Assembly: GCF_026571515.1 (NCBI RefSeq)
Contig: NW_026861258.1
Coordinates: 62,001-126,000, forward strand
DNA length: 64,000 bases
Origin: Ruditapes philippinarum
Taxonomy: Eukaryota
Reading direction: 5' to 3'
Shown: positions 19,101-56,121 of the stretch, in pieces
How positions within the stretch are numbered: position 1 is the first letter of the stretch
How the letters are laid out: every line of letters starts with the position of its first letter
The notes under the pieces: model-generated
Databases searched by the model: none
Told to the model about the DNA's origin: nothing
The model's input: only the letters and a program-made list of their open reading frames with translations
Program-made: the position numbers and the translations under genes

Positions 19101-19924
19101 CCTTAGAGATTTGCTTGTTTTTCTTTTCTCCGGCGGAAATGATTCTGGTAGAAGAACCAACATCATAAAAAAGCTATTGTTAGAAGGACTACGGCAGCTG
19201 CCAAAGGAACGTAGAAGTTATAATTTTGTATAAGATATCCTGCTGCAAAACTGGCCAAAGTTAATGAGCTTCCAAGCATAAACATAATATATGCCATTCC
19301 ATTAGTTCTTTGCTTGCCAGGTTTGGTAATATCCCCCGCGTATGCAAGACATACTTGAAGGAATGTGGCATACTGGCCTGTGCAACCTTCTATGAAGCAT
19401 GCTCCAATGAAATATAACATATTAAATTTGAAATATATGATAATAACCGAAAATATCAACCGTAATGTAGTTCCAGAAATTCCTACGCCAAGTAAAAATT
19501 TCCTGCCTAGTGCGTCTGTATACGAGCCAAGAATAAGGTTCGACACTACGGCTGGAATACCTTGAGATAAACTATAATAGACCATATATTGTGCAGCCAT
19601 AGACGTCGCTTCACTCTCAAGTTTGAATTCTGGACTACTTTTATTTGCAACACACACAGATAAGGACGAACTGTTTACAGAAACATTTGCTTCTTTAAAC
19701 TTTATGTCATGCCACGTCTTATTGGTGTATTCTGTAATGGTATAATATGACATCATGTAACCAAACATATAAACCGATAAAAGAGGTCCTATTAGATAAC
19801 GTCTCCATGACGTCAGCTCTGCTGGTGCTCCACCGGAAATAGTTCCATAACCGGAAATACTGTCGTCTCCATTTATGACCGTTTTTAAAGGTCTTTTTGA
19901 ATCTTCGGTGGATATCGTCTTCAT
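16143..19924 (-). CDS. SLC46 family (PCFT/SLC46A3-like) major facilitator transporter, ~490 aa, 5 coding exons, one frameshift in the assembly
   Basis: Exons 19924-18927, 18726-18552, 17593-17510, 17138-16982 and 16200-16143, all GT-AG with consistent phases. MFS motif A-like GSYTDALGRK, N-glycosylated loop after TM1, LLPES after TM6, PFCWS, IRSVASSLSEPSKQG-AIFA. The frame breaks at an A6 run (19167-19172) that needs A7. Confidence 0.88.
17630..17870. repeat. Degenerate ~49-bp tandem repeat (4-5 units) in SLC46 intron
   Basis: Recurrent attgtctcgtgcataatta...gggg units. Confidence 0.7.
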
Positions 19925-20959: not shown

Positions 20960-23900
20960 ATGCATTTATTGATACATTTTTTATATATAATGTATTTGTG
21001 CTGTACTTATATAACACCAAATAGTTCCACGGTAATTAACACAGACAATTTCTCCTTTTTTGATGAAATTGAATCTGGTCTAGAAAAGTATAATCTGTTA
21101 GGTAAATGTTTTATTTTAGGAGATTTAAATAGTAGAACCTCAAATCAATTAGAAATATTATCGTATGATAACTACATTGATCAAGAAAATGGACTATCAT
21201 GTAATGTTGAAATTCCTCCGCGTGTATCTAAAGATAAATTGATTGACAGCCTAGGTAGACGTTTAATTGAATTTTGTCAAACAACATCGTATATCATATG
21301 TAATGGGAGGCTCCATAGGGACGCCAATATTGGGGAAAGTACATTTTGTTCAATTAACGGATCAAGCGTCGTAGATTACCTACTTATACACATGAATGAT
21401 TTGAATTGCATTTCTGACTTTTCAGTCGCCGAACCAAACGAATTTTCCGACCATAACGGATTAAGTTTTAATATTCCTTGTAATAAAGTAAACGATAACT
21501 CTAATCAAACTGAACAATGTGAAACCATTATTAAATGGGATGAAAATAAAAGGGAATCATTTTTAAACCTTCTTCGATCAAAAAGGAACATATTAAATGA
21601 TGTAAATGAACAGATTTGTAGCAACGAAAATGTTAATATTACATGTATTGCAGATAAGTTTACTGAAATTTTACACGAATGTGCATCTAATGTCTTTAGC
21701 GTTAAGCGTAAACACAATAATTCTTGTAAAAATAAACTTAAACAGCCCTGGTTTAATCAAGAGTGCTTTAACGCTAGACAAAAATTTAAAGAGAAGAGAA
21801 ATAAATTTGTAAAAAATAGATCAAATGAACAATTTAAAAGGGAATTTATTTTTGAAAGAGCAAATTATACAAAAGTTAAGAAGATAAATAAGCGAAAATA
21901 CAATTTCCAACAAAAAGACAACTTAAATAAACTAGGGAAATATCAACCAAAGAAATTTTGGAGCAAAGTTAAAAAGCAATACGCAAAGAAACAGTCAGAA
22001 GCAGATTCTTTAAACATGAATGAGCTTTATGATCATTTTAAAAATTTATACAGTACTGAAACAAACAGCCGTTCTGCAGATATAAACTATAACATATATG
22101 ACGAAGATCTTGATAAAGAAATTGAAATGCAAGAAATCAGAAAAGCTGTTTTTTCGCAAAATGATAATAAAAGTAGCGGGATAGATTCTCTTTTGGCAGA
22201 AATGTATAAATGTTCATTTGATGAAATATCAAAAACACTTCATTTACTTTTCAATAAAATATATGTCAGTGGAGAATATCCAATCTCGTGGGGGGAAGGC
22301 ATAATAGTACCAATCTTTAAGAGCGGAGATAAGGAGGATGCAAAAAATTACAGGGGTATTACATTGATAAATATTATCTCAAAAATATACTCACAAGTTC
22401 TTCTGAATCGCTTAACCGAATGGTCCAAAAAGCACCAAAAAATAATTGATAATCAATACGGCTTCCAAAAAGGTAAATCTACAGCCGATTGTATATTTCT
22501 TTTGAATTCTGTTATTGCGAAAACACTCTCTCAGGGGAAGAAACTCTACTCAGCATTTGTCGATTTTGAAAAATGTTTTGATAAGCTAGAAAGATCGTAT
22601 ATATTCATTAAACTTTTCCAAGAAAATGTCAGCTCTAGATTTGTTAAGGCGATTCAAAGTATGTACATGTCTGTGAAAGCGGCAATTAAATACAAAAATT
22701 CTGTATCCAACTTTTTCGAATCTAACATAGGCGCAAAACAAGGGGATCCCAGCTCTAGCTTACTTTTTCTCTATTTCGTAAATGATTTAGTTAATAATAT
22801 AAATAATAATATTGAAGGATTGTTTACCATCGATGAGATAAAACTTTTTGTTATTTTGTTTGCAGGCGACGCAGAATTTTTGCGCACACACTGGAAGCCT
22901 TACAGTCAATGCTCAATGATTTACAACTTTATTGTTTCAATTGGGGTATGAAAATCAATACAAAAAAAGACAAAAATAATGATTTTTGAACAAGGAAGAC
23001 ATTCTTCTTACGATTTCAGACTAAATAACGAGTCATTAGAAATTGTAACACAATTCAAATATTTAGGAGTGACTCTATTCAAGAACGGTCATTGGAATCG
23101 CACCCAAAAAACTCTTGCGCAACATTCCCTTTACGCTCTTCATAATCTATTTATTGTATTCAATCAGTTAGAATTAAAAGTCGTGGATAAATGCAAGCTT
23201 TTCGACAGTCTTGTTAGTTCTATTCTTAATTATGGGGCCGAAGTATTTGGATATGACGAAGCAAAGGATATTGAATTAGTTCATTGTAAATTTTTACGAA
23301 AAATACTTAATGTTAGGAAGTCAACAAATTTAGAGTGTTTATACGGAGAGCTTGGCCGACATCCAATGAGAATTCAAAGAAAAATTATACTTATTAAATA
23401 TTGGCTAAAAATTATAAATCTCGAAGAAAATTGTTTACTTAAACAAATGTACAACATACTTAAAATTGACGCTGACAACGAAAATTCATATAGAGGGAAA
23501 AATTGGGCCTACCATATCAAATCTATTCTTCAGGAGATAGGGATGTTTAATTTATGGTTAAGTCATACTGCTAATCAAAATAATTTCATTTCTATAAAAA
23601 ACAGAATTTTGGACATATATAAACAAGACTGGTATAGAAAAATAAATAATTCAAGTAGATTATCTTCCTATTGTATTTTCAAACATGAATTTAATCAAGA
23701 CTTATATCTAAGTGTTATAAATACGAATAAATTCAGAATAGCTTTAACAAAATTTAGACTGTCAGCACATAATCTTGCCATTGAAACAGGTAGACATCAA
23801 GGAACGCCTAGGGAAGAAAGAAAATGCCAAAAATGTACTATGAATGTAATTGAAAATGAGTTTCATTTCCTCCTTATTTGCCCAAATTATTATAACTTAA

Positions 23901-24283
23901 GGAAACAGTATCTAAAACCATATTTTTGTAGGTGGCCTACTATTAAAAAATTCGAATTACTGATGACAAGTAGAAATCCTAAAGAAATTATCAATCTATC
24001 AAAATATTTATACTTTGCATTTCAAAAAAGAGAATTACAAAATATTTAGAATAAAATAAACTGAAAGTATATAACTTTTAAGAAGTTAAATTATTGTTCT
24101 ATTCTGTTCAGTATTAATTGTTGTTTTGTACCATTCTTCTGTTAATTGTTAAATATTGTACAATGTTTGTAACACGTTTATCCCTTTTCATATGATATTG
24201 AAAGTATATTGGCTATATGTATGCTCATGCTATTTTATGCCAAATAAAGATTATGTTATGTTATGTTATGTTATGTTATGTTA
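20960..24283 (+). mobile_element. Non-LTR retrotransposon (RTE-X-like LINE): APE endonuclease + RT + C-terminal Cys/His domain, 5' truncated, 1 frameshift
   Basis: ORF 20960-22951: GDLNSRT, SVVDY, SDH (endonuclease); NYRGITL, QYGF, FVDFEKCFD, GAKQGDPSS, LFAGDA (RT). Continues after a 1-nt deletion at ~22875 (FAHTLEALQSMLNDL...KTKIMIF) into 22979-24049, ending CQKC...ENEFHFLLIC. 3' tail aataaaga(TTATG)n at 24243-24283. Confidence 0.92.
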
Positions 24284-35400: not shown

Positions 35401-38400
35401 GTTTGCATTACCAATATTTACGTTTGCATTAAACATTCATATATTTCAGTGATGAATTGACACTGGAAGGTATCAAGCAGTTCTTTGTTGCCGTGGAGAG
35501 AGAGGAGTGGAAATTTGACACATTATGTGATCTCTATGATACTCTTACAATAACACAGGCTGTCATCTTCTGTAACACAAAGAGAAAGGTGGGGCATAAC
35601 ATTACCTCAAAATCTATCAAAACAATGTTGTATAATATACATCTAAGGAATTATGTGTGTTATACTGAAGTATTGTGCTTGATTGGGCCATATATAATTT
35701 GTAGTGAATCTTTACTACACTAAATATTTTTAAATGGACTTGTCTGTCTTTCAATCTGGACAAATCCATTCATTTTTGTGGAAAATTTCAAAATGAGTAC
35801 TGACTTAATTAGCAACTGTGCAGACCATGATCAGGTGGAATGGTTTTGCCCCCTGATCTAAGTTTGCATTGGTTGCATTGCTAGTCAGTTGCCCATCAGC
35901 AGGTTTAAGGTAGTCTTACTGTAAAGCTTTCCCGCCAAAGAAATTATAACTTTGGCCAATATCGTAGCAAATCAGTTATTTCTGGAACATTGTTTTTTCA
36001 AAATCTTGGGCATTAGATTATATACAATCACTCATTCTTTACAGCTGTGCACTTTGTTCCAGTTATAAACAGTTAAAAATTATTGAATACCAAAGATTGT
36101 AAAAAATCTTGTTTCAGACTGATTTATTTGATTTATTACGATATTGGCGGATTTAGAAATTTTTTGGCGAGAAAGCATTTCCATATGACTACCTTAAAGG
36201 CAATTATACATAATGATTAAAGCTAAAGGTTGTAAGCATATGTTGTTTTCTTATAAGCTTATTGAAAGTAGGTTTTGTAATGAAAATCTATTACTTGTTT
36301 CTATGTTTATTAATTATATGGTACAAATTTTAGGTGGATTGGCTGACAGAGAAAATGAGGGATGCTAATTTCACAGTTTCATCTATGCATGGAGAAATGG
36401 TCCAAAAAGAAAGGGAGACAATTATGAAAGAATTCAGATCAGGGGCTAGGTAAAATATAGGTTATACTTTACAAAAAATTCAAAGCACGGGCTTATTCTC
36501 TTATATATATATATTAGTCTTTCTTTTGATCAAGTCATTAAGGTTGTGTTTTAAATGTTTATTGGCCATTCTGTGTTTTTATGCCATTGGCACATTCACT
36601 GTTTCATGCTATTGGCATATATTCACTTTTGTATGCCATTGGAGCATTTACTGTTTCATGACATTGGTGCAATCATTCACTGTTTCATATCATTGGCATG
36701 GTCACTGTTTTGACAGCTTTCACTCAATGTTACAAAGTTATGCCATTTGCATATCACTGAAACTATACATTAACATATAAAGATTAATAGTGTAGTTTCA
36801 CTTGTTAAAAGTGATGAGTTCATTATTAAGTTTTACATAAAGAAATACCATCATCAAGAATTTGGAGAATTTTTTTTTATTGCATTTCTGCCTTACTAGA
36901 GTTTTATTATTTGGTTCAAAGATTTTGATCTGAGATATCTTGGAAAACATACAAGATCTATTACTTTTGATTTTATAGTAGACTTTGAAAATGTAAGTGT
37001 AACATGTTGGAAAAGCTCAGCAAAAAATTTGCTATTTTACTTTGTAGCTTATTGAAAAATGCCTTCATATAACATGATATTCATATGTATCTGTGCGATT
37101 CTTATGATCTCATTTTGAATTTGAGTATGATAATTTAAAGATACATTATGTTTATGTTTAGCATTTTTTTTATTGAAATCTAGGAAATTCTTACTGAAAA
37201 TGTCTAAGTTGAATAAGAGAATGTACAAACTATATTTGGGATACTCCATTTCCTGTTTCTGGTCAAGTTAATATTGTCCTTTCTTAAAAAATCTGGCAGA
37301 TTTAAAACCTATAGTGTCAAGAAGTGTGAAGAGTTTAAATGTGTATTCATCGGATGTTTATTTAACATTTAAAAAAAAAGAGAATGTATAGCAATTATTA
37401 GTATTTTCATATATTAAGATTTGATCATTTTTAGTTTAACTGACTAATTAATTTAAGCATATCTTTAAAATTCTTTTTAACACATAATATATACTGATTA
37501 TTTTATTATGACAGTCGAGTGTTGATAACAACAGATGTGTGGGCTAGAGGTCTAGATGTACAACAAGTGTCCCTTGTCATCAACTATGATTTACCAAACA
37601 ACAGAGAATTGTATATTCACAGGTATTGTCTCAATTTTAATTGTCACAATTTCTGGTGTGGTCGGGGTGGGGGATCCTTTGATTGCCTTTAGATAAGCAG
37701 GGATCCGGGATCATATTTCATATATATCATAGTAATTGCTAGGCAGAGGTTCTTGTTAGCTTGATTGTTTGCTGAATAGGGAGATCTATTTTACTCACCT
37801 ATGCATGAGTGTCCGCATCACACCTTGGTTAACTTTTTTTGCACACAAGTTGGTATCTCCAAAACTACTGAAGGGAATGGGTTGAAACTTCATGCACTTA
37901 TTGGACAGAATTTTAGGAGGTCAAATTCTATTACTAACTGGGTTTTATCAATATTATGACCTTTAAAAAAAGGCTTTTTAAACAAAGAAAAATCTACAAT
38001 TCACAGATGTAAGTCTTGAACTTTTTGTAGCAACTGAAAAGTGAAAATTAAATATTTAAGAATGGTTGATTCAAATTTAAGATCATATTGAAGAGTAGTC
38101 TATACCTAGTGTATTTTTATGAAAATATTCTGGCTAGAAAAAAACTAGAATTTGTTATTAATATTAAACACATAAACATTTGACTGCAGAATTGGTCGAT
38201 CTGGAAGATTTGGTCGTAAAGGTGTGGCCATCAATTTTGTGAAGAATGACGATATCAGAATTCTGAGAGATATTGAACAGTACTATTCTACACAGATAGA
38301 TGAAATGCCTATGAATGGTAAAAATACATATATCTATACCTTATTTAATTTATTTATTATCTTATTTTTATGCCCAACTTCCTAATTTTGTCACATTATC

Positions 38401-41400
38401 TTAATCATTAGTTTATTTTTCTATCACAGTGTATTTTCTATTTCTGATCATTTTTAGATATTTTGTTCACCTTTGTGTTTTCCTAAACTAGGCAACCCTG
38501 TTTAGTGTTTCATTAATGCTAACCGTCATGTTTATTATCTCATTTTGTCAAATTTTGTTTATTATCTATTCTCTTGTTTTGTTTGTTCAGCACTATTTAT
38601 TAATTTCTTTGTCCAACTTTCTTGTTTATTGTCAATGTCGAACTTCTTTTTAGCTCGACTATTCGATAAGAATAAGTAGAGCTATTGTAGTCACCCAAGC
38701 GTCGGCGTCGGCGTAACCACTTATGTTAAAGTTTTTGTAATAGTTCAAATATTTTCAAAGTCCATTGACATATGGCTTTGAAACTTTGCACACTTGTTCA
38801 CCATCATGACCCCAACCTGTAGACAGGAGGAGGTAACTCTATCAAGCATTTTGACAGAATTATGCCCCTTTTTCAACTTAGAATTTATGTTAAAGTTTTT
38901 GTAATAGTTCAAATATTTTCAAAGTCCATTGACATATGGCTTTGAAACTTTGCACACTTGTTCACCATAATGACCCCAACCTGTAGACAGGAGGAGGTAA
39001 CTCTATCAAGCATTTTGACAGAATTATGCCCCTTTTTCAACTTAGAATTTATGTTAAAGTTTTTGTAATACCTCAAATATTTTCAAAGTCCATTGACATA
39101 TGGCTTTGAAACTTTGCACACTTGTTCACCATCATGACCCCCACCTGTAGACAGGAGGAAGTAACTGTATCAAGCATTTTGACAGAATTATGCCCCTTTT
39201 TCGACTTAGAATTTACGTTAAAGTTTTTGTAATAGTTCAAATATTTTCAAAGTCCATTGACATATGGCTTTAAAACTTTGCACACTTGTTTACCATCATG
39301 ACTCCAACCTGTAGACAGGAGGAGGTAACTCTATCAAGCATTTTGACAGAATTATGCCCCTTTTTCAACTTAGAATTTATGTTAAAGTTTTTGTAATAGT
39401 TCAAATATTTTCAAAGTCCATTGACATATGGCTTTGAAACTTTGCACACTTGTTCACCATCATGACACCAACCTGTAGACAGGAGGAGGTAACTGTATCA
39501 AGCATTTTGACAGAATTATGCCCCTTTTTCGACTTAGAATTTACGTTAAAGTTTTTTGTAATACCTCAAATATTTTCAAAGTCCATTGACATATGGCTTT
39601 GAAACTTTGCATACTTGTTCACCATCATGTCACCAACCTGTAAACAGGAGTAGGTAACTCTATCAAGCATTATTTTTTACTATCAAGCACTAGAATAGTC
39701 GAGCGTTGCTGTCCTACCGACAGCTCTTGTTTATTTATCTCATTATGCCCAACGATATTCATTATCCCATTATGTCTTTCTTCGTTATTTATCTCATTCT
39801 GTTTAACAAAATATTAAATATGTTAGTAAGACCACCTATCTTTTTTATCTCATTGTGTTCCGCTTGTTTGTTTTCTCATTATTTCCCATGTTGTTAATTT
39901 TCTCATTTTGTTACAACAATAATTTGTTATTATAATCAATTATAATAACTATCATAATCTAAGTATTTTCAATTTGTTTATTTTACCAGTATGTCCTGTT
40001 CTTTTGATTATCTCACAGTTTATTATCGTAGTTAATGTTGTTGTATTTTTCTTGTCCTTTGGGATCATTGATTCCAACACATTAAGTGTTGAGAATTGAG
40101 TACAGCTAAGGGCATGGATGGTACCTTTTAAATTACCACTATCGTCCATGAACAGACTCGATGAAACCAAGTCTACAGTTTTCATCTAATTTTGGTGTGA
40201 TTAATGGTTCTGAGGGATCACCTTTTCTCAAAATCTTTATCATCTTGTAATGTCTAAGTCTGTTATTATCTCATAATTTCCTGTCATTTCTTACCTCATT
40301 TTGTCATGGCCTGATTATCATCTCACTGTGTTAAATGAGCTATCTGTTTAGAATAATCATGTTTATTATTTTATCATGTTCAACTATATTTATGATATCA
40401 TTTAGTTTAATCTATGTGTCTTATCTCATGATTGGCTATGTTTATTATCTCATCATATCTGACAATATTTGTTTTTATCTCATTTAGTTTAACCATATTT
40501 ATTATCTCCTTATGTTCTGTCATGTTCATTATCTCATTTAGCTTATTCATGTTTATCTCATCATGTATGAATTTGTAAACAAGTAGGTAGGTTCTAGAGT
40601 TATAAATACATAGATATAGTCATGTTTATTATATACTTATAAATAAATGAAGTATTGAGAAATAATGGTGAAATAAAATACATATTTTCATTTTTAGCTC
40701 GACTTTTTTTTTTTTTGGAAAAAAAAAGTAGAGGTATTGTTATAGTCGGGTCGGCGTTGACGTTCCCGTCTGCAAACTTGTACCTGGATCATAACTTTTT
40801 TATTTCTTGGTGTATTGTCTTCATACTTGGCCACAACAACCCTTGGGACAAGACCTTTCAGTAGACCACACTAACCTTGACCTTCATCCATAAATGACCT
40901 TGACCTTCAAGGTTATAAGTCCAATTTTTGCTTGTTCATGCTGTTATTGGCTGTAACTTTGTTATTTTTAGCTCGACTATTCGATAAGAATAAGTAGAGC
41001 TATTGTAGTCACCCGAGCGTCGGCGTCGGCGTTGGTGTCCGCGTCGGCGTAACCACTTATGTTAAAGTTTTTGTAATAGTTCAAATATTTTCAAAGTCCA
41101 TTGACATATGGCTTTGAAACTTTGAACACTTGTTCACCATCATGACCCCAACCTGTAGACAGGAGGAGGTAACTGTATCAAGCATTTTGACAGAATTATG
41201 CCCCTTTTTCAACTTAGAATTTACGTTAAAGTTTTTTGTAATAGTTCAAATATTTTCAAAGTCCATTGACATATGGCTTTGAAACTTTGCACACTTGTTC
41301 ACCATCATGACCCCAACCTGTAGACAGGAGGAGGTAACTGTATCAAGCATTTTGACAGAATTATGCCCCTTTTTCGACTTAGAATTTACGTTAAAGTTTT

Positions 41401-43653
41401 TGTAATAGTTCAAATATTTTCAAAGTCCATTGACATATGGCTTTGAAACTTGGCACACTTGTTCACCATCATGACCCCAACCTGTAGACAGGAGGAGGTA
41501 ACTGTATCAAGCATTTTGACAGAATTATGCCCCTTTTTCGACTTAGAATTTACGTTAAAGTTTTTGTAATAGTTCAAATATTTTCAAAGTCCATTGACAT
41601 ATGGCTTTGAAACTTTGAACACTTGTTCACCATCATGACCCCAACCTGTAAACAGGAGGAGGTAACTGTATCAAGCATTTTGACAGAATTATGCTCCTTT
41701 TTCGACTTAGAATTTACGTTAAAGTTTTTGTAATAGTTCAAATATTTTCAAAGTCCATTGACATATGGCTTTGAAACTTTGCACACTTGTTCACCATCAT
41801 TACCCCAACCTGTAAACAGGAGGAGGTAATTGTATCAAGCATTTTTTCTTACTATCAAGCACTAAGAATAGTCGAGCGTTGCTGTCCTACCGACAGCTCT
41901 TGTTGAATGGATTGTCTTCAAACTTGAACATAATAATCTTCAAGGATATCCATTAAAAATAACCTGACAGACCTTGACCTTCACTCATAAATGACCTTGA
42001 CTTTGAAGGTCAAATTATTGAAATTTTCATGTTTTTGGCTATTATTGGCTGTAACTTTGTTATTTTTGAATGGATTGTCTTCAAACTTGAACATAATAAT
42101 CTTCAAGGATAACCCTTAAAAATAACCCGACAGACCTTGACCTTCACTCGTAAATAACCTTGACTTTGAAGGTTAAATTATTGAAATTTTCATGTTTTTG
42201 GTTATAATTGGCTGTAACTTTGTCATTTTTTAATGGATTGTCTTCAAACTTGAACGTAATAATCTTCAAGGATAACCCTTAAAAATAACCCGAGAGACCT
42301 TGACCTTCACTCATAAATGACCTTGACTTTGAAGGTCAAATTATTGAAATTTTCATGTTTTTGGCTATTATTGGCTGTAACTTTGTTATTTTTGAATGGA
42401 TTGTCTTCAAACTTGAACATATTAATCTTCAAGGATAACCCTTAAAAATAACCCAACAGACCTTGACCTTCACTCATGAATGACCTTAACTTTGTTTTGG
42501 CTGTAACTGGCTGTTACTTTGCTATTATTGAGGGGATCAACTTCATATTATAACAGAACATACTTAAAGACAAGACCTTGTTGTTTATCGTGACTTCACC
42601 ACGTGACTCCACCACGTGACTTCACAACATGACTCCACCACGTGACTCCACCATGTGACACCACCACATGACTTCCATGTGACTCCACCACGTGACTCCA
42701 CCACGTGACTCCACAACATGACTCCACCACGTGACACCACCACGTGACACCACCACATGACTACCATGTGACTTTAACGTGACTCCACCACATGACTACA
42801 CCACGTGACTCCACCACGTGACTCCACCACGTGACTACACCACGTGACTCCACCATGTGACTACACCACATGACTACACCACATGACTACACCACGTGAC
42901 TTCCACGTGACACCACCACGTGACTCCACCACGTGACTTCACCACGTGACTCCACCACGTGACTCCACCATGTGACTCCACCACGTGACTTCACCATGTG
43001 ACACCACCATGTGACTTCGAATTGTGTGTCTCTATTTATATATATATAAATTAGTAAATTTATATATATAAAATATATAGACAAAACTAATGTGACAAAA
43101 CAGAATGATTAATTTTATAAAAAAGGAAAAGTTTATATTTTGTTCAAACATTTCTTTGTTTGCTTTTAGAGAAAGTAAAAAGTCGAGTGTTGCCCCCGCC
43201 CGGCGGTGGCTCTTGTCTGTATTTTCACAGTAAAAATTTATTTTTCACTGCAGTGAAACATTTCCATATTTTGACTGGTGTTTTGTCTGGCTTCTTTCGT
43301 ATTTTTTTAAACAGATAATTCAAGTTTTTTCTATAAAAACAGGATTTATTTTCATCTTGTGGTATAAAAAAAATCATATTTCACTTGTGGCTAGTGCCAC
43401 TCATAAAATATTTATTTTCATACCACTCAATGAAAATTAAATCCTGTATTTATAGAAAAAAACTCAAATATCCTCAATGTATTTATCAATCTCTAGGTTA
43501 TACTAAAAATTTATGTCTTTTAGCTTATGAACTTCTTACTCTGCTATACAATAACTATAATAACTTTTTTCATTAATATTTTAATCATAATTCTGATTAA
43601 ACTATCAGTAATAACATATTTTCATTTTATTTACAGTTGCGGATTTGATCTAA
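26416..43653 (+). CDS. EIF4A3: Eukaryotic initiation factor 4A-III (DDX48), exon-junction-complex DEAD-box helicase, 399 aa, 11 exons
   Basis: Exons 26416-26548, 29819-29891, 31516-31645, 32152-32284, 33304-33384, 34162-34303, 35450-35588, 36334-36449, 37515-37622, 38190-38317 and 43637-43653 (1200 nt, all GT-AG). Motifs [50 protein letters not shown]. eIF4A3-diagnostic [36 protein letters not shown] and end EMPMNVADLI. Confidence 0.97.
26705..26810 (+). mobile_element. Tiny CR1-like LINE 3'-end relic in eIF4A3 intron 1
   Basis: Translates to ...[21 protein letters not shown], matching the LP-x-V-x4-VNxFKxxLDxxW terminus of CR1-group ORF2. Confidence 0.55.
27346..27880. mobile_element. MITE with tandem subterminal AACTCGGC / GCCGAGTT repeats
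   Basis: Four AACTCGG repeats at the left end and inverted GGCCGAG repeats at the right end; AAAGTGGGCCGAGTT pairs with AACTCGGCCCACTTT. Confidence 0.75.
27905..28611. mobile_element. TIR element (18-bp perfect IR) containing a ~230-bp palindrome and a SINE insertion
   Basis: GTTGCAACCACAGGTGCT (27905-27922) and AGCACCTGTGGTTGCAAC (28594-28611); internal fold-back at 27977-28205. Confidence 0.7.
28242..28570 (+). mobile_element. Young tRNA-derived SINE (V-SINE/RUDI-like) with poly(A) tail and 13-bp TSD
   Basis: A-box tagccaagtgg, B-box ggttcgatcc, central ggtggttctacccaggtgccc...ggtcttcctcc, A-tail. TSD GTAAAATATTTGA at 28229-28241 and 28571-28583. Confidence 0.9.
29189..29786. mobile_element. 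TA-flanked MITE (Tc1/mariner-type)
   Basis: TA-CTGGTTGGGGACCA ... TGGTCCCCAACCAG-TA. Confidence 0.8.
30237..31071 (+). mobile_element. HINE/pearl-type (Helentron-associated) element with ~168-bp core repeats x4
   Basis: Left end TTTTATGCCCCC, (CCGT)n microsatellite, four tandem units (starts ~30314, 30481, 30649, 30817), subterminal IR GGGGGCAT, hairpin gtgtcctatggacac, end TCTAGTT. Confidence 0.85.
31890..32105 (+). mobile_element. Old degenerate copy of the tRNA-SINE
   Basis: gtggttatag...gggtttaaatccc...ggaagattagtggttcttccc...gtctttcaccatc, colinear with 28242-28570. Confidence 0.5.
38647..39731 (+). mobile_element. HINE-type element with 164-bp core repeats x6
   Basis: TTTTAGCTCGACTATTC start, (GGCGTC)n, six units, IR GAATAGTCGAGC, hairpin gctgtcctaccgacagc, end TCTTGTT. 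Confidence 0.88.
40965..41904 (+). mobile_element. HINE-type element (same family as 38647-39731, 5 core repeats) nested in another HINE
   Basis: Same termini and 164-bp units; splits the host repeat ggctgtaactttgttattttt|gaatggattg inside its T-run. Confidence 0.88.
42588..43017. repeat. ~13-bp minisatellite (CCACGTGACTCCA)n
   Basis: Roughly 30 or more imperfect units, visible directly. Confidence 0.92.
43218..43478. mobile_element. Hairpin-element family (copies also ~45990-46263 and ~60960-61170 inverted)
   Basis: Shared cactgcagtgaaacat...ttttttctataaa.acaggatttattttcatc...aaatcctgtatttatagaaaaaact..aatatcc. Confidence 0.65.
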
Positions 43654-51519: not shown

Positions 51520-53285
51520 AGTAAAGCGTTCGATAAAGTCTGGCACAAAGGTCTTCTCTTTAAGCTGAAAGCTGCTGGAGTAGACGGTTGTCTACTTAAC
51601 TGGTTTTCTGACTATCTTACTAACAGGCACCAGGCGGTTATACTACCTGGGGTCCAATCAGACTGGTCGATAGTAAAGGCTGGAGTACCCCAATTCTCCA
51701 TCATTGGGCCGCTACTATTTCTTGTTTTCATCAATGACATCGTGGAAGATATACTAGTAGGCTCTAAAATTAATCTTTTTGCTGACGATACCAGTTTACA
51801 TATTATTGTTGACTACCCTGCTTCTGCTGCTGAAGCACTTCAATCTGATATAGACAAGATATCAGCTCGGGCTGAAAAATGGCTGGTTACTTTCAATCCA
51901 TCGAAGTCTAAATCTATGGTTATCTCTTGTAAAAGAAATAAACCCTTTCATCCTTCACTTCTTATGCATAACCAACAAATAACAACCGTCAACAGTCACA
52001 AACATCTTGCATGGCCTCCACCTTTCAGACGATTGCTCGTGGCATTGTCACATTAACTATATTACCGAACGAGCCTGGAAGAGAATACACATTATGAGGA
52101 AATTGAAGTTTCAGCTTGACCGTAGATCTCTTGAAGTGATATATTTAACTTTCATCCGACCGATTTTGGAATACGCCGATGTTGTCTATCTAAACTGCAC
52201 AAAATATGAGAAACTTGAGCTTGACAAAATTCAAAATGAAGCGTCTCGTATTGTGTGCGGTGCTACAAAACTTGTATCATTAGATAAACTCCATAGTGAA
52301 GTCCCTTGGGAATCCTTAGAATCTCGAAGAAATAATCACATGCTTATCTTACTTTATAAAATGACAAATGGCTTAACACCAGATTACTTGTGCCTACAGT
52401 AGGCGAAAATTCAAGGTACGATCTACGCAATGGTTCAAATATTCAGGTTATTCGAACACGAACAACTCTTTATCAAAATGCTTTTCTTCAAACTGCTCTG
52501 AATAAATGGAACGCCCTTCCAACTGAAGTACAAAATTTACGTTCACTGTTTGCTTTCAAATCCCATTTGAGACGAAGCAGCTCTGGTTGTCCGATTTATT
52601 TCTATGAAGGCGATAGAAAATGGCAGATCTTTCATGCTCGACTTCGTACTGAATGTAGTTCTCTAAATCAACATCTATTTAAGAAATTATTTCTCCATCT
52701 CCTCTTTGTCAGTGTGGCATAGTGGAAAGTAATTACCACTTTTTCTTTGAATGTCAACGCTATGCTGACAGCAGGGCCTCTTTTCTTAACACTATATCTA
52801 CTATTTTTCCAACTCTCCAAAAGTTATTTAATATAGACCCAAACATTAGTGATGATGCAAACAGAAGACTGTTTGAAGCCGTTCATACATACATCCGAGA
52901 AAGCAGGAGATTCTCTTAAGCATATTCACATCAGCTCAAATCACTAAATACTTCCCATTTAAATCGTTGAACTATCCGAATGATCCACATTTCATTTATT
53001 TCTCCTTCTTTTCTATTTTGCTGAAAGTTTCTTCCTTCATTTCTTTCTATCTTAATTTACGTTATTTCTCTTTAATTTTATATAACAAAATGATGCAGTC
53101 TTGTATTCTCATTCATTTTTTGTATATATTTTTGCTTTATATTATAACTAAATGTTAGAAACAATTTTGACTTTAACTTCTTAAAAACAATGTAAAATCA
53201 GATATATTTCAAGCAAGTCACATATACTGTCATACCGTATTTTATGCATTGTAAATCTATAAGGAGAAGGCCTTTATAAGCTCAG
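51520..53285 (+). mobile_element. 5'-truncated, frameshifted CR1-clade LINE (RT C-terminal half + 3' UTR)
   Basis: KAFDKVWH, GVPQFSIIGPLLF, LFADDT, FNPSKS, RPILEYAD, RLRTECSSLN and CQCG..ESNYHFFFEC spread over four frames (51499-52919). Confidence 0.9.
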
Positions 53286-53484
53286 TTTAATTTTTAAACT
53301 AATATTTTATTTAATGGTTGTGATAGTTAGTAAGTGCTTATGCTTAAAATTAATTAAAGTTTTTGTTAAAAAAAATCTACATGGAGAGGAATTAGCTGTC
53401 AACGCCTTTTTCTTTTTCACGCATTTCCATAGAGAGCGCTTGCGATATTTACGTAAAGATATTTCGGTAAAAAATGCGCGATAG

Positions 53485-53533
53485 TGACGTCAGAGATATT
53501 TGACGAACCGGAAGTTGATAAACAAACATGGCG
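53485..53533 (+). promoter_or_regulatory. Compact promoter: CRE, ETS site and strong start context
   Basis: TGACGTCA 53485-53492, CCGGAAGT 53508-53515, AAACATGGCG at the ATG. Confidence 0.6.
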
Positions 53534-54865
53534 GATATAAATCAATGCACATCAAGAACGTTAGCTTCAAACTCTGGTATTTCAAGCGAGCTTGCCAGTC
53601 GGATTGTTAATTTCCGTAAACTAAATGGGCGTGTTCAATCGTTTTCTGAACTTTGGAATGTGGATGGGATGACTAGAGCATTCATGAAGACATTGAGGTC
53701 AAACTTCTTAATAAAGGATGCAGCTAGTTCAGGACTGGAAAATATTAATAACAATAGTTTTAGAACACCAAAGAAGAAGGAGAAGAAAAACAAAATTAAA
53801 TGCAAAGAGACGTCGACGGTAAATAATAAAACATTTTCAAACGTGAACTCCCGAGTTTTAGAAAGTTTACCACTTCTTTCCGATAGTCATGGTGCTGATG
53901 ATACTGATAGCGATAATTTGTTCACCGTCTATACACCAATCGCGGTCCAGTCGTCGGCATCAAGAGGAAAGATAATAACGGTTTACCAAGTAGCATCTCC
54001 TGACAAAATGAAATCGCCCGAAATTATAAAAAGTGTTTTACCCCGGCATAATAGAAAAGAATCCAAAAATCAAAGTAAAAACCAGGCTAAGCAACAGACG
54101 GGGCCAAAACGTACTACAGGACAAAACAGGGAAGTGAAAACCCCATCTCCCCGAAAAAATAAAGACAATGGTTTAACCCATTCTAAAAAGAAATCTATTC
54201 AGAAATGGTTAAAAGATTCAAGTACAGAAAGTTCAAAAGAGATTTCACCATATACCGGAAATAATAAACGCAGTAAAAGTCGAGACCAATATAACCGTAA
54301 CCAAAGCTGCAGTCGGTCGAGAAGCGGTAGCCGATCACGACTTTTACGGAAATCTTGTGGGGCAAAAAAGAAAATTAAACATTTCAAACCACATCATGGT
54401 CATACGTCAGAATTAAAAAACAAAGGTAATGCGCATACAGAGAATCCTGATGGACCATTAACTTGGCTTGATTTAGAATCATCATTTGAAAAAGGCAACG
54501 AGAAACAAAATTTTGAAGCGAGCAGGCGATATGACCGATGTAAGAAAAGTTCGTCTAGGGCAGTCGAACCAAATCCTTTGAGAAGTGAAAGAGAGGAGGG
54601 GAACCATCATATCCAGCATCCTTGTTCATCATCGTCTGTAAAACAAAAAGTTAAAATTACAGAGTCAAGTAAAGATTTAAACAGACGGAGCATCACAAGA
54701 CGCTCTCTCTGGAAGAACAAGCGGCGATCCCGAAGCCCATATGATTACCATCAGCACCAATACCGCCGCCATCGAAGTAAATCACGTGACCGAGACAGAT
54801 CACGTGACAGGAAACACAGACCTGCTAGCTCACCTGAAGCAAATGATAATTGCACAATTCTATAA
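53528..54865 (+). CDS. Intronless 445-aa protein: ComEA-like helix-hairpin-helix (HHH_3) N-terminus, basic/RS-rich disordered tail, C-terminal CaaX (CTIL)
   Basis: DINQCTSRTLASNSGISSELASRIVNFRKLNGRVQSFSELWNVDGMTRAFMKTLRSNF follows the ComEA pattern (IN.A...L..L.GIG...A..I..YR...G.F.S..EL..V.GIG......L). NLS-like PKKKEKK; RS tracts; ends NDNCTIL*. The frame is 1338 nt and uninterrupted, in AT-rich DNA. Confidence 0.8.
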   Translation: MADINQCTSRTLASNSGISSELASRIVNFRKLNGRVQSFSELWNVDGMTRAFMKTLRSNFLIKDAASSGLENINNNSFRTPKKKEKKNKIKCKETSTVNNKTFSNVNSRVLESLPLLSDSHGADDTDSDNLFTVYTPIAVQSSASRGKIITVYQVASPDKMKSPEIIKSVLPRHNRKESKNQSKNQAKQQTGPKRTTGQNREVKTPSPRKNKDNGLTHSKKKSIQKWLKDSSTESSKEISPYTGNNKRSKSRDQYNRNQSCSRSRSGSRSRLLRKSCGAKKKIKHFKPHHGHTSELKNKGNAHTENPDGPLTWLDLESSFEKGNEKQNFEASRRYDRCKKSSSRAVEPNPLRSEREEGNHHIQHPCSSSSVKQKVKITESSKDLNRRSITRRSLWKNKRRSRSPYDYHQHQYRRHRSKSRDRDRSRDRKHRPASSPEANDNCTIL

Positions 54866-55296
54866 TGTGCATACATTTAACCACGGATCTTAAATATATA
54901 TAAATCCGTGAACAATCAATTAAGCATTTAAACAGTTTTTGTTTCCTATGTAAAAATGAACATCGAATAGATCTAAATTAATTTTATAATTATATTCATT
55001 GTTATAAACTATGATCAAACATTTCAAGATGATCTATTTATTTCTATTTATTAACAAAAATGTACCCAGTTCGAATGACTAGTCTGCAAGGCATATTAAA
55101 ACATACATTGTACATTTGAAGTGATGATCCTTATTAAAAATAGTGTTTTAGATACATTTATCTGTTTTATATTTTATGTCACCTTTACTCGGAAGTTAGA
55201 AAATGCACCAGACTTTTATGTATTATATTCTTTATTAATTCCGTGTTATAAATTGTTTTATATAATCTGACAAGGACTACCGTACTGCTTTTGAAA

Positions 55297-55646
55297 TTAG
55301 TGTCCAGCTTTATTTGTCATCCAATGAAAACGCTGTATTTCTTAAAAATTATGTGTGTTAATTTTCTTAGTGTCCAGCTTTATTTGTCATCCAATGAAAA
55401 CGCTGTATTTCTTAAAAATTATGTGTGTTAATTTTCTTAGTGTCCAGCTTTATTTGTCATCCAATGAAAACGCTGTATTTCTTAAAAATTATGTGTGTTA
55501 ATTTTCTTAGTGTCCAGCTTTATTTGTCATCCAATGAAAACGCTGTATTTCTTAAAAATTATGTGTGTTAATTTTCTTAGTGTCCAGCTTTATTTGTCAT
55601 CCAATGAAAACGCTGTATTTCTTAAAAATTATGTGTGTTAATTTTC
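55297..55646. repeat. Perfect 70-bp tandem repeat x5
   Basis: Unit ttagtgtccagctttatttgtcatccaatgaaaacgctgtatttcttaaaaattatgtgtgttaattttc at 55297, 55367, 55437, 55507 and 55577. Confidence 0.95.
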
Positions 55647-56121
55647 ATAGAAGAAAAAAAGTCGATACTATATTGAAATCCGTTCATAGTCGCCTTCTAT
55701 TTTTCATAGTGCTTCATAGTACCGCGTAGTGACGTAATCAAGGGCCAAATAAAGCTTGACACTAAATATGTTAGTGTTCATCCTTAGCTGTTCTACAGAA
55801 ATTAGAAACATTCTCCTGTCGCTATCGCTCCCGTCGAAGTTTCTAATTTCTGTAGAACAGCACGGATGAACACTAACATATACATAGAAGAAAAAAAGTC
55901 GATACTATATTGAAATCCGTTCATAGTCGCCTTCTATTTTTCATAGTGCTTCATAGTACCGCGTAGTGACGTAATCAAGCGCCAAATAAAGCTTGACACT
56001 AAGTATATGTTAGTGTTCATCCGTGCTGTTCTACAGAAATTAGAAACTTCGACGGGAGCGATAGCGACAGGAGAATGTTTCTAATTTCTGTAGAACAGCT
56101 AAGGATGAACACTAACATATA
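55646..56121. repeat. Tandem duplication (~237-bp unit x2), each ending in a ~117-bp imperfect palindrome, inverted between copies
   Basis: Units start at 55646 and 55883; hairpins 55766-55881 and 56004-56121 are reverse complements of one another. Confidence 0.9.

Follow-up and report, generated by a model that had tools for sequence, protein, structure and literature searches.

A clam gene joining a ComEA-type helix-hairpin-helix domain to a CaaX box: a candidate chromatin-to-nuclear-membrane linker

The locus, its transcripts and its second copy

The stretch of DNA analysed here, which we call the window, covers 64,000 nucleotides from the clam Ruditapes philippinarum (contig NW_026861258.1, positions 62,001 to 126,000). 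On its plus strand, at window positions 53528..54865, lies a single-exon open reading frame (ORF) for a protein of 445 residues (isoelectric point 10.4; lysine plus arginine, K+R, 22%; serine 15%) that ends in CTIL. The gene is real, consists of one exon and is transcribed in some samples. An original prediction, made from the letters alone, had described this unbroken frame as an intronless gene for a candidate membrane-anchored nucleic-acid tether, with a DNA-binding domain of the ComEA helix-hairpin-helix (HhH) type, an arginine-serine (RS) rich basic tail and a terminal prenylation signal; the frame and its CTIL terminus are borne out. We tentatively read the product as a geranylgeranylated linker between chromatin and the inner nuclear membrane of germ cells, probably male ones.

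One contig of the RNA-type run X13 (record 7, 1632 bases, depth 447) covers 53517..55152 on the plus strand as a single collinear piece spanning the whole ORF, so an unspliced form of the transcript exists, in keeping with the predicted lack of introns; depth in the flanking bins at 51774-53509 is 2-11. A contig of run X8 (record 30) spans 53576-55257 at depth 38, with depth 0 in the bins at 51774-53075. Most of the ORF is covered in two pieces in X18, and X19 covers it in four pieces at depth 4.5-8. Of these four mapped runs X19 is the sole one recorded as RNA, the type of X13, X8 and X18 being guessed, and assembled contigs carry no information on the strand, ends, level or tissue of the RNA. 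The ORF stretch is contained in 20 of the 24 listed runs, four of which were mapped in detail. RNA-type runs thus contain the gene, and the lack of expression that the original prediction had allowed for did not materialise; X21-X24, RNA-type runs from two studies, had no words in common with the gene, which is no proof of absence. No splice joint fell inside the ORF among the 15 joints shown (74 more were not shown).

Genome searches with two different parts of the query found at least two places for each. The second copy, on contig C10862, encodes 451 residues, is 94% identical to the 445-residue protein and also ends in CTIL, and, block by block, the first 30 kb of its contig are collinear with the window and its continuation. 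The copy reads as the other haplotype; a segmental duplicate is also possible, since a synonymous divergence (dS) of 0.09 is high for alleles. The collinear contig (L003-L005) is 81-96% identical in blocks, carries large insertions and is unusually divergent for an allele. The ratio of non-synonymous to synonymous substitution rates (dN/dS) between the two copies is 0.29 overall and 0.09 in the HhH domain (3 synonymous changes and 1 non-synonymous), and it is 0.23 between two relatives from metagenomes, L040 and L041; judged by these ratios, the gene is under purifying selection. The database model of the second copy, XP_060558604.1 (P0150), has 285 residues, begins at an internal methionine and bears the RefSeq name 'peptidyl-prolyl cis-trans isomerase G-like'. 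We correct this model, in which the HhH domain is dropped and the gene misnamed; the name PPIG (cyclophilin G) is rejected on the Pfam scan, which found no cyclophilin domain.

The HhH domain and the family that carries it

The ComEA-type (HhH)2 domain occupies residues 2-62 (53531..53713, plus strand); it has lost hairpin glycines and its net charge is positive. Pfam HHH_3 matches residues 3-57 (E = 6.5e-11; 42.6 bits against a curated cut-off of 27), and Pfam found no other domain in the 445 residues at E up to 1. In an AlphaFold2 model built on a 23-row alignment, residues 1-60 have a predicted local distance difference test score (pLDDT) of about 90-95, with helices at 9-16, 20-33, 39-44 and 50-59. 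Fold searches covered residues 1-68 and superposed this predicted model on ComEA (8dss_B; Z 9.9, root-mean-square deviation 1.5, 63 aligned) and on Tex (Z 11.2, deviation 1.5, 68 aligned). The solved structures that match best by sequence are human EEPD1 (E = 6.3e-07) and Bacillus subtilis ComEA. The Pfam match and the model together uphold the ComEA/HHH_3 pattern originally read in this segment, and the failure to find an HhH match that had been considered at the time did not occur. ESM Atlas gave no feature match for the whole protein and only generic HHH_3 clusters (below 0.9) for the domain, and a homodimer prediction for residues 1-236, in which the alignment was not used, scored 0.00 and speaks neither for nor against a dimer.

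Like EEPD1, the clam protein combines a ComEA-type (HhH)2 fold with a lipid anchor. In EEPD1 an EEP domain and a myristoyl site at the N-terminus accompany two (HhH)2 domains (PMC12988330), whereas the clam protein has a single HhH stretch, no EEP match, a Met-Ala start that lacks Gly2 and a lipid signal at its C-terminus; an EEPD1 identity is rejected on these grounds. A locus elsewhere in the genome (L009, G000:C15564:22609-25791, minus strand) has a Met-Gly first coding exon with two (HhH)2 domains, a domain order that suggests the name EEPD1-type. With Gram-positive ComEA the clam protein shares the connector-less (HhH)2 fold and a flexible region leading to a membrane anchor. It differs from ComEA in that the order is reversed, a prenyl signal stands in place of a transmembrane helix, the hairpin glycines and K164 are lost, and the organism is a eukaryote.

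The family was drawn from an exhaustive protein search with 142 hits, 13 of which, each with a single N-terminal HhH, were picked by eye (P0001, 2, 6, 7, 20, 29, 38, 44, 68, 72, 88, 107 and 132); P0148, P0149 and P0155 were added later. Word-index searches, confined to intermediate length classes, had little sensitivity: the protein itself and a 3-row alignment found 2 hits each, and a 13-row alignment, for which only 8000 candidates were scored, found 6. P0009, of 872 residues, has several HhH domains and, by eye, an EEP-like C-terminal domain, and was left out as a multi-HhH protein. All 13 aligned family members match HHH_3 at E up to 0.05. Ten lineages that share two internal motifs are labelled bivalve-type, their named members being Ruditapes (Venerida) and Dreissena polymorpha (Myida). 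All ten keep the HhH domain, both motifs and the CaaX box while sharing about 23-39% of their residues with the clam protein; whether the two ends are conserved while the middle diverges was a question raised by the original prediction.

The metagenome loci L039, L040 and L041 encode relatives as single unbroken ORFs, L040 and L041 forming one lineage. The L039 relative is 32% identical in its best segment, and its orthology is shown by synteny: as in the window, exons of eIF4A3 precede the gene in the same orientation, at a distance of 3.7 kb in L039. No eIF4A3 neighbour was found within the 1.5-3.9 kb of upstream sequence of L040/L041. When the profile of the bivalve-type group was set against that of the divergent group, and against P0132, the HhH domain alone aligned. 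In divergent proteins motif 1 is weak (2-18 of 200 shuffles score as high in five of six; one has no domain), as is motif 2 (8-73 of 200 shuffles in four; two have no domain), and homology of the motifs there is judged by eye only. No relative was present among 65 candidate stretches of viral contigs. A literature search, with subscription journals outside its scope, found no paper in which a protein of this kind pairs an HhH domain with a CaaX box, and no description of the family, which agrees with the earlier remark that the architecture was not recognised from any named protein.

The hairpins bear on how the domain might act. In B. subtilis ComEA, K164A is described as abolishing transformation, the equivalent mutant fails to shift DNA, and the first-hairpin GIG is needed (PMC9747964); in Vibrio ComEA, G60V/E and K63 mutants fail (PMC3879209). 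We compared 15 family domains with 327 other HhH domains taken from the hit list and thus selected for likeness to the query. The clam hairpins read GIS and GMT, not GhG. The second glycine of both hairpins is missing in 15 of 15 family domains, and glycine stands at those two positions in 256 and 173 of the 327 others; the first hairpin glycine is replaced by proline in 3 of 15. The lysine equivalent to ComEA K164/K63 is likewise missing throughout the family and is also rare in the comparison set (29 of 327); K164, located by count from the C-terminus of the 205-residue ComEA, aligns to Leu22. Because the second hairpin glycines and the ComEA lysine are lost in all 15 domains, canonical ComEA-style DNA binding by the clam HhH is unlikely. 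Family domains carry arginine at position 10 (13 of 15) and arginine or lysine at position 50 (14 of 15), and their mean net charge is about +6, against -0.7 over the 327 others; Cys7 (14 of 15) and Trp43 (12 of 15) are family-specific. The second (HhH)2 domain of human EEPD1 departs from GIG as well, and is reported to contribute to DNA binding all the same (PMC12988330). The domain could plausibly hold DNA weakly by electrostatic attraction, with help from the basic body; a role in binding proteins is a serious rival to this.

HhH domains of another kind are common in the clam genome. Of 37 HHH_3 matches 30 were read, comprising 25 gag-like ORFs or fragments, two belonging to the EEPD1-type exon, two to this gene and one that we take to be SRBD1-like. 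Several gag-like ORF families, on many contigs (L014-L038), begin with half an HhH domain, and one of them (L021, L024, L026, L027) has a long threonine-rich and RS-rich linker; zinc knuckle and capsid-like matches were found in one of two gag-like ORFs scanned (L036). The gene could on this account be a domesticated Ty3/gypsy gag fragment that kept its N-terminal HhH and RS-rich linker, shed the capsid and zinc-knuckle parts and acquired a CaaX box, and its lack of an intron would fit. We consider such an origin very improbable. A family profile built from 14 family HhH domains scores EEPD1-type clam domains at 43-44 bits and five gag domains at 14-22, over their first half only. In a tree of 57 rows and 63 columns the 15 family domains fall on one side of a 98/93 branch (with two non-family rows inside it) and the gags on a 100/99 branch; the family HhH may derive from EEPD1, from another host gene or from a bacterium. 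Pfam found neither a capsid-like nor a CCHC knuckle match in the 445 residues, and the two copies occupy a syntenic site. An active transposon or gag ORF is rejected, given two copies found, the syntenic site, collinear flanks and a separate tree group; the high-copy gag-like ORF that the original prediction had named among its hazards is therefore not what we find, the count of genomic copies being at least two.

The disordered body, the CaaX box and cellular location

Beyond the HhH domain the protein is modelled as mostly disordered, with 310 residues below pLDDT 50 and a longest helix of 14 residues, and it is basic throughout the family (isoelectric point 9.8-11.5 in 16 of 16 lineages; K+R 18-24% in bivalve-type members). 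A TPKK site and the basic cluster PKKKEKK (residues 81-87), which resembles a nuclear localisation signal (NLS), lie at 53765..53788 on the plus strand. The cluster is present as originally predicted, but differs in the second copy and does not align across the family; K(K/R)x(K/R) occurs in 9 of 10 bivalve-type lineages at varying positions and is often expected in so basic a chain. The RS tracts noted earlier are all present, namely SRSRSGSRSR in the disordered middle (residues 262-271; 54311..54340, plus strand), RRSRSP (399-404) and RSKSRDRDRSRDR (416-428), and so are the sites of cyclin-dependent kinase type, as three S/T-P-x-K/R sites. An RRSLWK motif and a basic tail rich in arginine, histidine and serine (54698..54820, plus strand) end 14 residues before the CaaX cysteine; the RRS.WK-type pattern recurs in 6 of 10 bivalve-type lineages, and residues -44 to -5 carry a net charge of +2 to +7 in all ten.

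The 26 RS/SR dipeptides, with the database name of P0150, might point to an RS-domain nuclear-speckle or RNA-processing factor. We give this reading very little credence: P0150 is a truncation that lacks the HhH domain, there is no cyclophilin or RRM domain, and RS/SR counts vary from 6 to 44 over 16 lineages in which the HhH domain and the CaaX box are the conserved parts.

Three short motifs stand out from the disordered chain. Motif 1 (P..h..S.SG.Kh...Y; 53921..53992, plus strand) is a predicted beta-hairpin, with strands at 135-142 and 149-155 and pLDDT of about 67, and motif 2 (K..SI..WL; 54179..54220, plus strand) a predicted helix at 218-231 with pLDDT 63-78; each was recovered leave-one-out in 10 of 10 bivalve-type lineages, with none of 200 shuffles scoring as high. 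An acidic-hydrophobic motif, (P)L(T/S)L.DL (54452..54478, plus strand), is found in 8 of 10 bivalve-type lineages, its pattern having been drawn by hand from the alignment without a shuffle control. These motifs resemble binding motifs within a disordered chain, and they favour an explanation in which the protein is a prenylated, phosphorylation-controlled scaffold whose HhH, hairpin, tryptophan helix and L.DL motif dock proteins at a membrane, with the HhH off DNA. The loss of the GhG glycines and the ComEA lysine in every family domain, with Cys7 and Trp43 kept instead, would suit such a scaffold, as would the fact that PsbU and protein K of type II secretion, neither of which is known to bind DNA, have the same fold. 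However, the domain has gained positive charge rather than losing it, the isoelectric point is about 10 or more in all lineages, and the second EEPD1 domain contributes to DNA binding though off GIG (PMC12988330). A pure scaffold thus appears possible but unlikely.

The CaaX box CTIL (54851..54862, plus strand) fits the pattern of geranylgeranyltransferase I (GGTase-I), with a cysteine four from the end, an aliphatic a2 and leucine as X. Cysteine at -4 is found in 11 of the 13 family hits and in 5 of the remaining 129 hits of the exhaustive search. All ten bivalve-type lineages keep a CaaX box, X being leucine in nine and isoleucine in one, so that close orthologues lacking it, an outcome foreseen earlier, were not encountered. 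Counting all 16 lineages, 12 end in CaaX; P0072, P0107, P0148 and P0149 do not, and they form one branch (99/98) in which the lipid is dispensable. These four have a conserved hydrophobic-basic motif near the C-terminus, which may serve in place of the lipid as a signal for a membrane or a partner. Human OAS1 p46 carries the identical CTIL box, which it needs for geranylgeranylation and which suffices for it (PMC8357416); prenylation of the clam protein, and the geranylgeranyl type named in the original prediction, are likely by this precedent.

The original description of the C-terminus as polybasic holds less well. The ten residues before the CaaX cysteine have a net charge of -2 in the clam protein and between -2 and +2 across the ten bivalve-type lineages, the arginine/histidine tract lying further up. 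A polybasic patch beside the lipid is the K-Ras-type plasma-membrane signal, and such a signal is rejected here, the residues before the cysteine being neutral or acidic family-wide.

Location is harder to read. An NLS plus a CaaX box suffices for nuclear-membrane activity in lamin tails, GFP-NLS-CaaX and Kugelkern; the same 2010 paper names only lamins and Kugelkern as prenylated nuclear proteins, few of which are described, and offers in Kugelkern a lineage-limited precedent of similar size, 570 residues (PMC2947476). Like Drosophila Kugelkern and B-type lamin tails, the clam protein has a terminal CaaX box, basic NLS-like clusters and short islands of conservation in a chain that otherwise varies widely. 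It differs from them in its N-terminal HhH, the lack of a rod and a terminal leucine that would direct geranylgeranyl rather than farnesyl, and no sequence relation was found; membership of the lamin/Kugelkern family is rejected, no coiled coil or filament rod being modelled and HHH_3 being the only Pfam match. By analogy, we favour the inner nuclear membrane.

The protein may instead bind nucleic acid on the cytoplasmic side of a membrane (endoplasmic reticulum, Golgi, plasma membrane or mitochondrial surface), catching foreign DNA, for example, or, in germ cells, retaining organelle DNA or RNA granules. Here OAS1 p46 offers the model, being a nucleic-acid binder on membranes via geranylgeranylation that the identical CTIL takes to endomembranes (PMC8357416). 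Among solved structures the closest in sequence is EEPD1, which a lipid anchors at the inner cell membrane (PMC12209743), and Gram-positive bacteria have in ComEA an HhH receptor for DNA that is anchored in the membrane (PMC9747964). Unlike OAS1, an RNA-activated enzyme, the clam protein has no recognised enzyme domain, and with only HHH_3 in Pfam it offers neither a catalytic nor a signalling domain. Two copies and a dN/dS of about 0.25 seem unlike an expanding immune family, and the many basic clusters would favour nuclear import. We regard such a cytoplasmic role as doubtful.

A promoter element, a hint of germline expression, and interpretation

A full palindromic cyclic-AMP response element (CRE), TGACGTCA, lies at 53485..53492 on the plus strand and begins 43 bases before the ATG. 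It is kept in all three lineages with DNA (the window, L039 and L040/L041), beginning at -43 in L039 too and at -35 in L040/L041. The clam background amounts to 14 such sites over 211,348 bases, or 0.004 per 60 bases; assuming that it holds for the two further lineages as well, both would match by chance about once in 60,000. An ETS-like site, CCGGAAGT (53508..53515, plus strand), is probably incidental: its 8-mer is present in 38 of 100 shuffles, none of the three orthologous loci (L039, L040, L041) has it less than 400 bases from the ATG, and we reject it as a meaningful element. Of the two promoter motifs originally proposed, then, the CRE stands and the ETS site falls. In mammalian spermatids TGACGTCA is a site through which CREM works (PMC10454534). 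Our literature search found no paper joining bivalve, protamine-like, promoter and CRE.

A hint of germline expression for the clam gene comes from one transcript of the giant clam Tridacna squamosa (Cardiida). The transcript c237719.graph_c0, annotated only as 'Helix-hairpin-helix motif' and lacking an entry in nr, Swiss-Prot or KEGG, has counts of 1/0/0 in resting gonads, which lack germ cells, and 1962/1776/1114 in male gonads (log2 fold change 11.4); DMC1, RAD51 and KIF22 make up the remaining three HhH rows of the table (PMC7720611, Table S3). The comparison shows germ-cell expression, not male versus female. The profile fits this family, to which the transcript belongs somewhat more likely than not. 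Supplements of other bivalve gonad studies contained no HhH terms.

The fold, the lipid signal, the neighbour and the promoter element are kept across clam orders with three quarters of the residues changed, and the gene must therefore do something specific. In the mechanism we propose, the proximal CRE would drive a conserved single-exon gene for a basic, mostly disordered, geranylgeranylated protein. GGTase-I very probably modifies the CaaX cysteine, on the OAS1 analogy. Basic NLS-like clusters, with no polybasic patch beside the lipid, would then bring the protein to the inner nuclear membrane, as with lamin tails, GFP-NLS-CaaX and Kugelkern, a step we lean towards slightly. It is fairly likely that the positive HhH domain and the Arg/Lys/Ser-rich body grip chromatin weakly and without sequence preference, letting go once RS and S/T-P sites are phosphorylated, and that the hairpin and the tryptophan helix bind a partner protein. 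The main action may, by a narrow preference, be in germ cells, probably spermatocytes or spermatids, where chromatin would be held at the envelope and the nucleus shaped or condensed. The tether of the original prediction thus retains its HhH domain, CaaX box and basic clusters, whereas its mechanism stays conjectural, in an HhH domain that lacks the ComEA DNA-binding residues. Most likely the protein works like a Kugelkern or lamin tail with a chromatin-gripping head, though it belongs neither to those families nor to EEPD1, ComEA or gag.

Bivalve PL-I sperm proteins combine a histone-H1 winged helix with long Arg/Lys/Ser-rich tails. The clam protein shares with them a design of one small fold and such tails, and possibly a cell type; it differs in its HhH fold, in a K+R content of only 18-24% in bivalve-type members and in its CaaX box. 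Its folded domain being HhH rather than a linker-histone winged helix, membership of PL-I is rejected. It is tempting to speculate that clams independently built a lamin-free, CRE-driven, geranylgeranylated chromatin anchor of the male germline, from a ComEA-type fold with an altered DNA-binding face and a protamine-like basic body, and use it to hold chromatin at the nuclear envelope in meiosis or sperm-head shaping. We think this unlikely, though if true such an anchor would mirror, in a eukaryote, the membrane-bound ComEA of bacteria and would establish a new class of sperm nuclear protein. Were the gene limited to the germline, it would offer a handle on the shaping of the bivalve sperm nucleus and a gonad-state marker for farmed clams and the invasive zebra mussel.

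Several observations weigh against a germ-cell linker of chromatin and the nuclear membrane. As described above, the second hairpin glycines and the ComEA lysine are missing in every family domain and proline takes the first glycine position in some. Isolated (HhH)2 domains of EEPD1 are reported to form no stable complex with DNA, multivalence being needed (PMC12988330). CTIL sends OAS1 p46 to the Golgi and endomembranes, and a CaaX box alone does not fix location (PMC8357416). No NLS position is conserved across the family, four related proteins lack the CaaX box, and residues 126-235 have a dN/dS of 1.1 between the two copies, with only 2 synonymous and 8 non-synonymous changes. The CRE sequence TGACGTCA is over-represented in the window (7 against 0.69 expected) and serves somatic CREB targets as well. 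The giant-clam transcript, finally, is not tied to this family and could be a transposon gag.

The remaining features of the window are context. Three 3' exons of the upstream neighbour eIF4A3 lie at 36334..38319 on the plus strand and are not part of the gene. Between them and the gene are arrays of 163-164-base and 13-base units (38721-43016), and a 70-base tandem array (5.1 copies, 99%) follows just downstream of the gene at 55297-55650. Further upstream, a 253-residue ORF on the minus strand (19163-19924), probably a first exon, matches the MFS_1 transporter domain, and a plus-strand element at 20960-24049 resembles a retrotransposon of the type without long terminal repeats (non-LTR), with a 663-residue ORF that contains RVT_1 followed by a 356-residue ORF.

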